The position numbers were made by a program, and so were the translations under genes. From Eledone cirrhosa (Eukaryota), in contig OZ024742.1 in NCBI GenBank assembly GCA_964016885.1, positions 176,700,001 to 176,764,000 of the forward strand: a stretch of 64,000 nt of DNA, read 5' to 3'. This document shows, one piece after another, positions 2,474 through 58,550 of this stretch (the stretch's first letter is position 1; each line of letters starts with the position of its first letter). The notes under the pieces are model-generated. The model searched no databases and had not been told where the DNA came from. It was given only the letters and a program-made list of their open reading frames with translations.

Positions 2474-4454
2474 GTAAGTTATTAGTGTATATTTGTGGCT
2501 AATGTAGAAATATCGAATTATTGGAATGGGCTGCATCGAGGTGAAAACTAACATCAACACGAAGGATGAAAATGATTCCAATGAATGGCATTAGGTTTTA
2601 CACCGTATTGAAATATAATGTACTATCATGCAGCTACACTGCATAATAATGCTTTATATACATACACATAAAATATATTACAATATCCCCAGGCAGTAAC
2701 GTTTCTGTTCCATTTTTTCTTTTTTTTTTTTATTCCGCAAAGTTATTTACCAGAAAACTAAAGCGGCAACATTAATAGCAACAACATCGGCATCAAACAA
2801 CAACAACAATTATTTGAGCAACGACACTCATAGTATCATTTGGCAACTATTTTTCCGTAGGTTCGATGTTATTAAGACCTAAAAGCGGAAATTACCTTCG
2901 TAACAGTCATCTAAATTGGACATTGGCGATGATAAAACAGACCTATTTCACCACCATATTTATTTTTGCTTATTATTGTATTGTTTTTGTTTAACTCAAA
3001 GTCTGCAAGATGGCGCTGTAAATTACAAAGATGCTGGTGATGGCGTTTTAAATTATGTAGATGGTGCCGAAAATGACTCTATACGTTCTGTCTGGCAACG
3101 TTAAATAGATAGATGAGCAAAAGAAAGGACGAAACAAAAATGGATGGTGTATTATAAGAAGACAAGATGGCGAATTCCATAACTAAGCAACTGAGTTAGC
3201 TGTCAATAGAACAATTCACTTCTAATGGAGTATTTTACCTTCTGCCAAATGTTACCGATTGAGAAGTAAATTTACTTTTATTTCAATCGATTGCAGAATA
3301 GAAGAGTCCCCACACCATTTTCGGTAAAAATGTGTAACGTTTACATTATATAAAACTTTTCAAGATGATATATATATAGGTATGTGTGTATATGTATGTA
3401 TACATATATATGTGTGTATGTGTATGTGTGTATTTATACATATGTTAATATATATATATGTGCATATATATATATATATATATATATATATATATATATA
3501 TATTGCTATATACATATATATATATATATATATATATATATATATATCTAAATATATATATATATATCTATATGTATTTATGTATACGTACATACATATA
3601 TGTATACCGACGTACAGTAGTATGTATATATATACATACATGCACACATATATATATATATATATATATATATGCACGTATCGGTTTACCGAACATTTAT
3701 TATAATGCTCGGTTTGTTTGTTAGTAAACAATCAAACAAACCGATAGGTGCATATATATATATATATGTGTGTGCATGTATGTATATATATACATACTAC
3801 TGTACGTCTGTATACATATATGTATGTACGTATACACACATACATACTTGCATTTAAGTAAGTGTCGTACTAGGAGTTAGAAATGAAATTTCATTTCATT
3901 CTATTCAATTTATCTCTCTCTCTCTCTCTCTCTATATATATATATATATATATATATATATATATATACACATATATAAGTGCACATATATATCTTCACA
4001 GACACACACACAAACACGCACACACATATATATATATATATATAAATATATATATATATATATATATATATGTATATGTATATATATATATATACATATA
4101 TATTATATATATATATATATATATATATGTGTATATATATATATATATATATATATATATATATGTATATATATATATATATATATATATATATATATAT
4201 ATATATATATATATATATATATATATATATATATATATTTCGTTTCTGAATTTGTTTAGCAAGATTCTTTATCTGAAATCGTTTGTTGAAACCGATATTG
4301 TTATACTTTGGGAGGGTCATGTTGCCAATAAGAAACACACGCACCAGTGCTTTCACTTCAATTTAATTTATTATATATTTATAAATTTACAAATTTATAA
4401 ATTTCTGATTGGTTGGTTGGTTCCACAACCAGATAGTTGTTTATATATATATAT

Positions 4455-4499
4455 AGTCATAGTTCTTTCGTCACACACTCTGTGACCTCTTCAGTGACT
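4455..4499 (-). ncRNA. Minimal type-I hammerhead ribozyme (PLE pLTR)
   Basis: Reverse strand agtca-CTGAAGA-g-gtcaca/tgtgac-GAAA-g-aa-c-TA-tgact; stem I agtca/tgact. Confidence 0.8.
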
Positions 4500-5392
4500 G
4501 GGGATTTCTTTCTTCGTTTCTGTGCCTTTCCTTTCTTCTATCCTACGCCATTTTGTTTGTGTGTGGGTTGCGTGCTCAGTTTGCGCATGCGCCACATCCG
4601 GGTGTCTGTGTGTGTTTGTGTTCATTTTTCTATTTTTCTATTTATATTTTTCTATTTGTTTATTTATTTATTTATTTATTGTTGGTTGGTTGTTTGTTCT
4701 ATGTGTGTGTGTGTTTTTATTTTGTCCTTAATTGTAAGTTGTGATGTTGCTGTTCCACTCATATTTTCTATTTAATTTTGGTTTTAATTATTTTATGCTT
4801 ACTGAATCTGTAATTTGCCTAAACATTGCGTCTTTCTTGTGTGTGGATTCTATTTTTATTTCTATGCTCTCTAATTTACCCCTGTGTTCTATCTTAGCAT
4901 GCTGGTAGAGCACAGATGATTCTTTATTATCTTGAAGGTCTCGCCAGTGTTCATTTATTCGTTCCCCTATAGAACGAGCTGTCTCACCTATGTACACTAT
5001 ATTTTTGTTTCTACATTGTCCTTCAGTACATCTTATGCTATATACTACATTTCTAGTTTTACAGTTAATATGGGGGCTTATTTTACAGGTTATACACTTC
5101 TTATCTATACATGAGGGTCTTTGGAACGGGTATGTCTTGCTAATAAGTGTTTTTACGGAGGTACCAGGTCTTTCTACTATCTTAATATTGAGATAATCTC
5201 AATATTAAGATAGTAGAAAGACCTGGTACCTCCGTAAAAACACTTATTAGCAAGACATACCCGTTCCAAAGACCCTCATGTATAGATAAGAAGTGTATAA
5301 CCTGTAAAATAAGCCCCCATATTAACTGTAAAACTAGAAATGTAGTATATAGCATAAGATGTACTGAAGGACAATGTAGAAACAAAAATATA

Positions 5393-5662
5393 GTGTACAT
5401 AGGTGAGACAGCTCGTAGTATAGGGGAACGAATAAATGAACACTGGCGAGACCTCCAAGATAATAAAGAATCATCTGTGCTCTACCAACATGCTAAGATA
5501 GAACACAGGGGTAAATTAGAGAGCATAGAAATAAAAATAGAATCCACACACAAGAAAGACGCAATGTTTAGGCAAATTACAGAGGCAGTAAGCATAAAAG
5601 AATTAAAACCAAAATTAAATAGAAAATATGAGTGGAACAGCAACATCACAACTTACAATTAA
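5393..5662 (+). pseudogene. GIY-YIG endonuclease C-terminus of a 5'-truncated PLE (mirror copy at 4788-4997 on -)
   Basis: YIGET, R..EH, H and E..I..P.LN motifs of PLE endonucleases; no RT present. Confidence 0.88.
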
Positions 5663-5967
5663 GGACAAAATAAAAACACACACACACATAGAACAAACAA
5701 CTTACAATTGAAAACACACACAAAATGAAAACACACACAAGACAAAATGAAAACACACACACACATAGAACAAACAACCAACCAACAATAAATAAATAAA
5801 TAAATAAACAAATAGAAATATATAAATAGAAAAATAGAAAAATGAACACAAACACACACAGACACCCGGATGTGGCGCATGCGCAAACTGAGCACGCAAC
5901 CCACACACAAACTAAATGGCGTAGGATAGAAGAAAGGAAAGGCACAGAAACGAAGAAAGAAATCCCC

Positions 5968-6012
5968 AGTCACTGAAGAGGTCACATAGTGTGTGACGAA
6001 AGAACTATGACT
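5968..6012 (+). ncRNA. Minimal type-I hammerhead ribozyme (PLE pLTR)
   Basis: agtca-CTGAAGA-g-gtcaca-tagtg-tgtgac-GAAA-gaac-TA-tgact; predicted cleavage after CUA (6007). Confidence 0.8.
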
Positions 6013-6231
6013 ATATATATATATAAACAACTATCTGGTTGTCGAACCAACCAACCAACCAGAAATTTATAAATATATAATAAATTAAATTGAAGTGAAA
6101 GCAACTGGTGCGTGTGTTTCTTATTGGCAACATGACCCTCCCAAAGTATAACAATATATATATATATATATATATATATATATATATATATATATATATA
6201 TATATGTGTGTGTGTGTGTGTATATAAATAT

Positions 6232-56114: not shown

Positions 56115-56629
56115 TCCGAATTCGTGTGGTAGAGACGGGTACACATGTTGTTGAGGTGTTTAACTTCTTCGATACTACGATATGCCCAGTTCCTGGTTGG
56201 GTTGTTATATCCCTGAGGAACTGGAATCATATATATATATATATACACACACACACACATACACACATATATATATATATATATATATGTGTGTGTGTGT
56301 GTGTGTGTACTCGAGCTATTTGAAGAGAGCTTAGTTAGTGTTATCAGAGTTTAATACACTTAATATGTGCGCTACCAATGTTTCCGGGGTCCAGTTCTGA
56401 CCACCACTGTATAATGGAGGAGACACTTTTTAACTGGCCCTTAATTCAAACACGTGCACGTGGACGATAAAAATTTGCCACATGCCTCAATGAAGACCAA
56501 GTATAAAAGTGCCTCCATTACAGTGGTAGCCAGAACTGGATCACGAAACCATTGGTAGCACATACATTTTAAGCGTATGAAACTTTGTTTACACTATATA
56601 TATATATATATATATATATATATATATAT

Positions 56630-57110
56630 ATACACAGCCACACATATATTTGTGTAAATATATATATATGTATATATATATATATATATACAAATGTACA
56701 CAGCCACACATATATATTTGTGTAAATATGTATATATATATATGTATGTATATATATATATATATATATATATATATATATATATATATATATATATATA
56801 TATATATATATATATATATATATATAAATATACACAGCCACACATATATATTTGTGTAAATATATATATATATATATGTTTATATATATATATATATATA
56901 TATATATATATATATATATATATATATATATATAAATATACACAGCCACACATATATATTTGTGTAAATATATATATATATATATGTGTATGTATATATA
57001 TATAAATACACACAGCCACACCTATATATTTGTGTAAATATATATATATATATATATATATATATATATATAAATATACACAGCCACACATATATATTTG
57101 TGTAAATATA
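56630..57110. repeat. Compound minisatellite: tacacagccacacatatat(at)ttgtgtaa x6 separated by variable (TA)n
   Basis: Direct reading. Confidence 0.85.
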
Positions 57111-58018
57111 TATATATATATATATATATATATGTATATATATATACTTGTGTTTCTGTGTGTATATTTATATATAAACTCACGCACCCTTGAGGAAAAC
57201 TCCAGTTATATGTGTAATAACGCCGTATCTAAGTTTGTATGTATTGGAACATCTATGCACGTATGTATGCAAGCATTAATGTAAGTATATGTGTGTGTAT
57301 GTACACGTGTGGTATGCTTGTCTGTATATATGTATACATTTACATATATATGTATGTATAGATGTTTTTATATGTATGTATACATTCAGAATCGCTCACT
57401 GAAAGAATTTCAATGCTGCTTATCCTCTGTAATGTCTCTATTACTTAAAACAACCTGGAATGAAATGAAAATATGGCTGGCAAATTGATGGAAATTATTT
57501 AATTTTCACACAGTTACCGCATAGAATCGCTAATAAATTAGTTAGAAAAAAGGAATAAAATCCATTATATTCAACATGATATCTGAATCAATATATTATG
57601 TTGAGAATTTTATGTAAGAATTATGCGGTCTTTATTGCTGTCCTTTTTTCCCATTGAAGCAGAAACACAGAATTATTAACATATATTCTTGAAATGGAAT
57701 AGAATGCTATAGAATAAAAGAATGTTTACTGAGACCTAATGTTGACTATGTAGAATGTGCCTGAACTTAGAAGCATTTAAATGGGTGGACGATCAACTGT
57801 CTGTATATATATGATATATATATATATATATATATATATATATATATATATATATATATATATATATATATATATATATATATACATATATATATACACA
57901 CACACACACACACACACACACACACACATATATATATATATATATATATATATATATATATATATATATATATATATATATATATATATAAATATGTATA
58001 TATGTCTGTGTTTATTAA

Positions 58019-58063
58019 GCTCTGATGATTCCTACCCAACGGTTAGGATGAAACATTGTAAGC
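58019..58063 (+). ncRNA. Type-I hammerhead ribozyme
   Basis: gct-CTGATGA-ttccta-cccaacggt-taggat-GAAAC-att-GTA-agc, followed by aataaa. Confidence 0.75.
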
Positions 58064-58217
58064 AAATAAAAACTGAGTATGTATCCGTTATTTGGTTTCT
58101 TTTACATATATGTATATATACAATTAAATATACATACACACACACACATATATATATATAAATATATATAAGTAAATATACATACATACATACACACACA
58201 TGTATATATATATATAT

Positions 58218-58550
58218 ATTGTTATACTTTGGGAGGGTCATGTTGCCAATAAGAAATACACGCACCAGTTGCTTTCACTTCAATTTATTATAATACATTT
58301 ATAAATTTCCGGTTGGTTGGTTGGTTCCACAACCAGATGGCTGGTTATATATTTTCAAAGTTCTTTCGTCACACATTCTGTGACCTCTTGAGTGACTGGG
58401 GATTCTTTTCCTTGTTTTTGTACCTCTCCTTTGTTCTGTCCTACGCCATTTTGTTTCTTATTGGCAACATCACCCTCCCAAAGTATAACAATATCGGATT
58501 CAACACACGTTTTCAGATAAAGAATCTTGCTAAACAAATTCAGAAACGAA
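58218..58550. mobile_element. Third inverted insertion of the 4.2-6.1 kb PLE terminus
   Basis: 58218-58455 in minus orientation (hammerhead core mutated to CTCAAGA), 58452-58550 in plus orientation. Confidence 0.85.

Follow-up and report, generated by a model that had tools for sequence, protein, structure and literature searches.

The 64,000-nucleotide stretch of Eledone cirrhosa DNA analysed here (contig OZ024742.1, positions 176,700,001 to 176,764,000; hereafter the window) is part of a 3.0-Gb genome, is rich in (TA)n tracts and carries insertions of six families of elements, named A to F. These families share an integration rule in which an insertion is made of two divergent arms joined at their 5' ends, one arm (long) ending with a 3' tail and the other (short) stopping before that tail. 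The long/short rule is real, general across the six families and built on a known structure. With a probability of about 0.75, we explain it by both nicked strands of the (TA)n target priming reverse transcription on one RNA molecule, at two fixed positions within it. The evidence is that each family has two end positions, both internal to the element, that these ends pair in a complementary manner, that the arms are joined at their 5' ends through varied junctions, and that private variants are common to both arms.

The six families were sorted by self-comparison of the window and reading of the sequence. On sequence grounds A, C, E and F are coding, endonuclease-bearing Penelope-like elements (PLEs), and B and D, made of non-coding tandem units with hammerhead cores, are retrozymes, which therefore account for only two of the six families. 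Long open reading frames (ORFs) with a YVDD or YRDD motif and a C-terminal YIG-type domain are found in copies L300, L404, L357 and L347 (families A, C, E and F). Because Pfam gave no reverse transcriptase match for the five longer proteins searched, the reverse transcriptase identity rests on motifs recognised by eye. A pseudo-long terminal repeat (pseudo-LTR) generated by partial tandems, an inverted 5' copy and a tail are present in L116/L293, L300, L347, L357 and L402. The family-A ORF encodes 1329 amino acids with a C-terminal GIY-YIG domain (at 5192-5662 in the window, where PF01541 matches 5192-5659, E 2.6e-05). Its linker CIDKKCITC (CX4CxxC) and the cysteines and histidines inside the GIY-YIG domain fit the Neptune clade, for which PMC8557442 describes a CX2-5CxxC linker and a CCHH motif in the endonuclease. 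Family A would thus be a Neptune-type PLE by its motifs, and it may be a Nematis element instead. The same ORF (L300:1120-5106) has a long Asn/His/Thr-rich low-complexity insert, reminiscent of the Asn-rich inserts of rotifer PLEs mentioned in PMC3846280. The proteins of families C, E and F (L404, L357 and L347) show HSDKT, RLRW and CNCxxxxxC (CxCX5C) motifs, the third residue of the RWK motif being R or I. Section 11 of PMC8557442 gives a DKT motif, an RW-type motif, a CxCX5C linker and (TA)n targets for the Hydra clade, and by this match the three families are probably Hydra-type PLEs. A Hydra-type protein has about 780 amino acids.

For hammerhead motifs the PLE families gave mixed results. 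A hammerhead descriptor matched in families A and E, family C has a predicted three-way hammerhead fold with a UUGAUAA core variant, and in family F only a degenerate core was seen. An Rfam scan contained no hammerhead among the matches listed (150 of 271), nearly all of which were microsatellite-driven microRNA hits below threshold, and folding z-scores of the tail regions and of four hammerhead folds were not significant. In the family-C hammerhead at L341:4185-4305, the UUGAUAA core corresponds to U3-A8 in place of C3-G8, and a promoter-like TATA/TCAGT pair lies within loop II, at the start point of most family-C arms. The retrozyme units, of 310 nucleotides (nt) in B and about 420 nt in D, are arranged in tandem, each with what appears to be a conserved type I hammerhead core with stems I and II. 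In our sample no coding parent was found for B or D, and their matches to four PLE references were weak (best E 0.039).

The arms were counted in a sample of 225 segments covering 1.18 Mb of contig C1, plus the window, so the counts of pair types refer to samples of the genome; beyond this 1.18 Mb, 69 more segments were sampled. Segments were taken in position order by family anchors, which are blind to end type because they sit upstream of the short site; some long pairs chosen by spacing and ten read-through loci were added, and the first 30 loci, for which the query had included the tail, were excluded from every pair count. Tabulation by family showed two end positions each, 34-96 nt apart. 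The sample and the window hold 556 terminal ends (286 short and 270 long), which form 179 divergent pairs; low coverage led us to discard nine of these, six mixed and three same-type. Among the 170 kept, 167 associate a long with a short end, two are long+long and one is short+short, far above the 50% expected by chance (binomial p about 5e-46), and with the window excluded the rule holds in 157 of 160 pairs (p about 4e-43). It is found in every family (A 39/40, B 13/13, C 51/51, D 19/19, E 24/26, F 21/21). A second family-A set, taken from loci on many contigs and enriched for A-to-G hypermutated copies, gave 39 pairs, three of them already in the first set: 37 were long+short, two long+read-through and none same-type. 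The 198 unpaired ends comprise 134 without a detectable second arm (63 long, 71 short), 25 whose partner is of opposite type, two of the same type, 21 whose partner ends elsewhere and 16 at a segment edge. Twelve "convergent" neighbours listed at one stage were rejected as pairs, being separate insertions in one microsatellite or flank.

That the two arms come from the same RNA molecule is argued by RNA edits and by haplotypes. Some family-A copies, for example L368:1037-1774, L373:1009-1819 and L386:1456-1842, bear 15-56 dense A-to-G changes on the sense strand. Pooled over 11 insertions, G was the lowest 5' neighbour (0.23) and the highest 3' neighbour (0.50), a context which we take to be ADAR-like from the neighbour preference of this enzyme. 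Such copies are likely to be edited RNA that was reverse transcribed and then integrated. In two aligned copies the edits lie in the pseudo-LTR and end before the last ~90 nt and the tail. Defining an edited pair by 8 or more A-to-G changes in shared columns, 12 of the 39 pairs of the second set qualify, and in 11 of these the changes are common to both arms, with a Jaccard index of 0.50-1.0 against a median of 0.22 and a maximum of 0.47 between insertions (n=258). Three of the sharing pairs (C1:18.41, C2:177.13 and C9:19.95 Mb) are monomers whose short arm is the longer, which makes copying by fold-back impossible for them. Two edit patterns searched genome-wide were each confined to their own two arms, no source copy being present in the assembly. 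A search with one generic edited 22-mer yielded no new edited copies; these were found by similarity searches.

Retrozyme B tells the same story with ordinary variants: seven of 13 insertions differ from the window unit, all seven carry their haplotype in both tandem arms, the seven haplotypes are different, and the variant-carrying arms extend to ~3.1 and ~1.9 kb. The B arrays L131-L147 and L283 (C1:1.24 and 15.43 Mb) run for up to 6 + 11 units outward from one junction with a single haplotype, which fits rolling-circle copying by two polymerases. Over the families, no other long arm was as close as the own partner in 32 of 110 testable pairs, against 6.7 expected (some poor alignments were kept).

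These data bear on a first alternative, twin priming on two separate RNAs, each subunit of a protein dimer holding its own RNA in a different register. Such a scheme would spare the strand displacement otherwise needed in the 145 of 166 distinct mixed pairs whose long arm passes the short site; it would account for the one edited pair with unlike arms, and transcripts of one source locus would have ordinary variants in common. We nevertheless consider it unlikely, since 11 of 12 pairs have stochastic A-to-G patterns common to both arms, the assembly contains no source copy for either of two patterns tested, and the long arm of the remaining 21 pairs ends in the tail or at the short site, which is what would be seen if its copying met the other primer.

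The second alternative is a fold-back in which a single complementary DNA (cDNA) primes and copies itself and the endonuclease cuts an internal mimic of the (TA)n target to produce the short end. The first-pass annotation of the window had offered fold-back and twin priming as two options, and twin priming fits the data best. If the cDNA were primed at the long site, the short arm would be nested in the long one; if primed at the short site, it would have a tail to copy only through an upstream tandem unit. Among the 166 distinct mixed pairs, the short arm reaches more than 20 nt further 5' in 55 without an upstream tail and in 16 with a tandem, the long arm is longer in 43 and the two are equal in 52. 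Fold-back is therefore excluded as the general route, the short arm of the 55 pairs being further 5' with no tail copy to fold onto. In 21 of the 166 the long arm ends in the tail or at most 5 nt from the short site, so that nothing is duplicated and no core is shared; three cases of a further-reaching short arm or a missing shared core are in the window itself (24653-25253, 58216-58550 and 27752-27913). We rejected the possibility that copying of the long arm invariably stalls just past the short site, as the median long core is 55-638 nt depending on the family. The 30-mers spanning the central junction are distinct in 166 of 166 pairs, and BLAST ends place an overlap at 82 junctions, a blunt joint at 22 and inserted bases at 62. 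Because arm lengths are independent and the junctions all differ, both arms need to be templated by RNA and made anew at each insertion.

Family-C arms have their 5' ends clustered 50-62 nt before the short site, at a TCAGT behind an AT-rich box, which may be a promoter, and A or T tracts occur at some joints. The position of these ends, upstream of where the hammerhead is predicted to cut, agrees with an uncleaved template such as that of PMC11167929. A self-priming step has been proposed from junction palindromes (PMC3846280) and resolution of the tail by the endonuclease (PMC8557442). Fold-back would also explain private variants common to the arms, the 95 of 166 pairs in which the short arm is nested within the long one or equals it, and short sites lying on AT runs beyond chance (see below). 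Against this, besides the arm lengths and the 21 pairs without shared core, better mimics are left unused, single-arm copies are short as often as long (71 versus 63), and 62 of 166 junctions have inserted bases and 22 are blunt. We rate fold-back as quite unlikely.

The two end sites were then compared with the (TA)n target. From anchor to anchor the tails measure 60 nt in A, 34 in B, 79 in C, 62 in D, 96 in E and 83-87 in F. The long site is internal in all six families, since tandem or full-length copies read through it (boundaries marked by slashes: A GAA/ATAT/CG, B CCA/AT/TTC, C CGT/TAT/CTAG, D GTT/TAT/CG, E CTAC/AT/TAAC, F TTAC/TAT/TTGG). The earlier contrast between a long tail and an internal AT stop thus holds for the presence of one long and one short end per insertion, and fails in that the long end is also at an internal AT site. 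Alternating AT extends over 4, 8, 3, 5, 7 and 4 nt at the short sites of A to F and over 4, 2, 3, 3, 2 and 3 nt at the long sites. Against random positions in the same elements, the short-site sum of 31 exceeds a null mean of 10.5 (p about 5e-5; six families, three of them related) and the long-site sum of 17 gives p 0.08. A 5-nt microhomology read from one flank at the family-C long site was discarded when read-through copies showed 3 nt, which moved the long-site p from 0.036 to 0.08.

Longer internal AT runs are ignored: a 12-nt run in A is read through in 89 copies and stops none, a 12-nt run in D is passed 80 times for two stops, and an 8-nt run within the tail of F 38 times for none. Since copies pass through the longest runs of A, D and F, the ends are not chosen by AT runs, and the claim that an internal (TA)n mimic sets the short end is not supported, the best mimics being passed over and the long ends lying also at AT sites of 2-4 nt. 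Cutting of the internal site by the endonuclease is not required by anything in the data. It is likely that an AT microhomology of 2-8 nt assists priming and does not choose the sites. One insertion into a non-TA target kept both end positions with matches of 1 and 3 nt and a 12-nt target duplication, and four others, in imperfect tracts, have duplications of 14 nt. In C, E and F each of the two sites is followed within a few bases by an RCTC..GAGY stem (five found by script, the C short site by eye), and none occurs within the upstream 600 nt of these families. At C1:132947037-132947570 the read-through motif of the family-A long site is repeated in tandem twelve times, with a period of 46 nt.

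A third alternative supposes that pre-formed two-armed units spread, as miniature inverted-repeat transposable elements do or by read-through retroposition, or that the arms were later homogenised by gene conversion. One edited copy resembles a recopied unit, the window contains one local duplicate (7642 and 8856) and family-C pairs are often similar in size. This reading is very unlikely, since 166 of 166 junctions are distinct, the size peak of family C coincides with the common arm 5' end, 50-62 nt before the short site, where the junction bases vary, and gene conversion leaves the long/short rule unexplained. Finally, an assembly artefact from palindromic chimeric reads is highly improbable even with the window's own central joint at 24742 unbridged by any read among the records listed, as chimeras would give mirror arms and not family-specific asymmetry, target duplications or arm differences, and raw short reads labelled as the same species contain family-A long-to-short joints, at breakpoints other than those of the window.

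Several observations weigh against priming at two sites of one RNA. Two-arm formation is not obligatory, since 134 of 556 terminal ends are without a detectable partner arm, and same-type pairs do occur (3/170 kept, 3/9 dropped for low coverage and two among the partners found later). The 95 pairs whose long arm is longer or equal are also compatible with fold-back, and arm lengths are correlated in B, C and F, not significantly in A, D and E. An initial context test on two insertions showed no ADAR bias. One of the 12 edited pairs (C15:40.04 Mb, L463:1294-1816) has unshared edits: its A-to-G changes follow a single DNA strand through the two arms, and G residues interrupt the TA flanks; it looks like a finished two-armed unit recopied from an edited read-through RNA. 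It is possible that the similarity of the arms comes from later gene conversion or from a single source locus per cell, or, for the edited pairs, from an edited source locus since lost. The Hydra-type hairpin was not found after the sites of A, B and D. Lastly, PMC11167929 reports a start site that lacks homology to the cut DNA and does not differ between the strands.

The scheme that we favour, two-site priming on a single RNA, would proceed as follows. The endonuclease would nick the two target strands ~12-14 nt apart, and each nicked 3' end would be set on the RNA at one of the sites, aided by 2-8 nt of AT pairing. The copy started at the long site would halt at the short site or displace the other copy; the two cDNAs would end randomly, at the RNA 5' end or, for retrozymes, after several turns of the circle, and repair would join them. 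The sites are likely to be set by binding of the protein to an RNA structure, such as the RCTC..GAGY hairpin in the Hydra-type families, and a protein dimer with one site per subunit would account for the strict one-of-each rule. Retrozymes B and D would likely borrow the enzyme of a PLE. A wider proposal, to which we would give even odds, is that two-site priming on a single RNA is the normal route of endonuclease-bearing PLEs, with a dimer copying both strands at once with one reverse transcriptase per site, two rolling-circle polymerases working on one retrozyme circle, and fossil A-to-I edits serving as single-molecule barcodes.

Twin priming was reportedly described for LINE-1 (L1) by Ostertag and Kazazian in 2001: two target primers act on one RNA, and repair joins the products into an inverted structure. 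L1 has its first primer at the poly(A) end and its second at a position that varies, and its arms have no overlap. The integration seen here operates in the manner of twin priming but differs from the L1 form: the two sites have fixed, internal positions, overlap of the arms is usual (absent in only 21/166 pairs), and the two-armed structure is the majority outcome. Complex insertions described for PLEs (PMC3846280, PMC8557442) likewise consist of a head-to-head inverted, 5'-truncated copy with a pseudo-LTR and a tail at one end only, and (TA)n preference is given for the Neptune, Hydra and Naiad clades. A 34-bp repeat (PMC2377424) and hammerheads in PLEs (PMC4209133) are also known. In the accounts of complex insertions the tail is optional and of 30-40 bp, whereas it measures 34-96 nt here with a pairing counted as nearly strict, and where they suggest self-priming or endonuclease resolution, our arm lengths favour two primers. 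Both PMC8557442 and PMC11167929 treat the way in which PLEs build inverted ends and a tail as an open question.

The closest parallel is the in vitro study of the Poseidon element PAc (PMC11167929), in which both target strands are cut and extended and two internal start sites bound the tail. These sites are near the ORF start, the tail corresponds to the distance between them, the template is an uncleaved RNA and a dimer is predicted. That study concerns one Poseidon element, and in its available part the sites are linked neither with the two strands of a single insertion nor with a single RNA; unlike PAc, our families are Neptune-type, Hydra-type and non-coding, with 2-8 nt of AT microhomology. 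Animal non-LTR retrozymes have been proposed to be non-autonomous PLE derivatives (PMC7229834; bioRxiv 10.64898/2026.07.22.740005), and B and D resemble them by their non-coding tandem units (310 and 420 nt here) and type I hammerheads. The preprint, in its accessible portion, argues from co-occurrence and pseudo-LTR similarity, attributes arrays partly to local amplification and contains no analysis of insertion ends; unlike there, the end signature of PLEs is found in B and D, and arrays of B extend both ways from a single junction and keep one haplotype. Already published are the tail at one end only, the two start sites seen in vitro and the link between retrozymes and PLEs. Our literature search, in which older subscription work on Penelope was thinly covered, found no report in which long/short pairs are counted, twin priming is invoked for PLEs or edits serve as tags of the template.

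Together, these results give a concrete and cheaply testable model for the inverted ends and tail of PLEs, and add direct junction evidence that retrozymes use PLE machinery, for which the earlier argument was phylogeny. As the families are abundant (exact anchor copies genome-wide: A 25,700; B 16,600; C 10,981; D 11,213; E 11,095; F 30,149), this route seeds tens of thousands of hairpin-forming loci. Fossil RNA edits used as molecule tags could be extended to other retroelements.

In the window, the seven inverted insertions listed by the first-pass annotation are each a divergent long/short pair flanked by (TA)n. The first, of family A, has its long arm at 4239-5194 (minus strand), with the 3' end of the ORF, the pseudo-LTR and the 60-nt tail ending CAGAAACGAA/ATAT, and its short arm at 5196-6157 (plus strand), ending TATAACA/ATAT, with the GIY-YIG domain at 5192-5662 and a hammerhead-like motif at 5968-6012. 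Family A occurs again at 24653-25253, where the left long arm (minus) has only 90 nt and the right short arm (plus) ~510 nt, so that it cannot be a fold-back copy, and at 58216-58550 (short arm left, minus, ~240 nt; long arm right, plus, 99 nt). The noted association of a TATAACA/ATAT end with a CAGAAACGAA/ATAT end was confirmed in all three copies. The family-D retrozyme at 19805-20700 has its short arm on the left (minus) and its long arm on the right (plus), with a ~420-nt unit and a hammerhead at ~20381-20421 (plus), for which a homologous motif was folded. The family-B retrozyme at 26338-27737 is disposed inversely (long arm left, minus; short arm right, plus), with 310-nt units in tandem in both arms and a hammerhead at ~27252-27294 (plus).

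The mini-insertion of family C at 7642-7797 (long arm left, minus; short arm right, plus) contains the 3' half of the family-C hammerhead, its coding parent being L341/L404, and has a local duplicate at 8856-9011. The family-E insertion at 39938-40370 (long arm left, minus; short arm right, plus) has both arms starting ~160 nt before the short site and a hammerhead core at ~40262-40330 (plus); its coding parent is L357. The suggestion that non-coding retrozymes share the PLE machinery was borne out for B and D, which carry the same signature in 13/13 and 19/19 pairs; 7642-7797 and 39938-40370 are ends of coding PLEs and not retrozymes. Two family-F insertions whose orientation had been left unproven, 35217-35434 and 36258-37878, proved to be divergent long/short pairs as well (short arm left, minus; long arm right, plus, in both); the second has an internal deletion, and the orientation of both is shown by the full-length copy L347, in which the ORF points toward the same end. 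A further family-F pair, absent from the first list, lies at 27752-27913, with its short arm on the left and a long arm on the right that is the tail alone, starting at the short site.

Other features of the window are of lesser importance here. A local duplication at 6979-9011 comprises the family-C mini-insertion and its flank (6979-7381 versus 8366-8768, 98% alike). At 33902-34371 an older relative of retrozyme B has its long arm on the left and what looks like a short stub on the right, adjoining an old family-A long-arm fragment (34378-34458), and at 13190-13385 a family-D copy has its short arm on the left and what appears to be a long arm with just ~20 nt of tail. Inverted repeats outside families A-F are present at 6237-6461, 22123-22305, 31218-31303 and 33800-33880. 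Two ORFs unrelated to the finding were labelled by eye, from motifs, as non-LTR retrotransposons: one at 15114-18539 (minus), with a reverse transcriptase and a C-terminal nuclease-like part, and a broken one at 44710-48324 (plus), with an endonuclease and a reverse transcriptase. Finally, a tandem array of 21-nt units occupies 52941-53416, with open frames on both strands.

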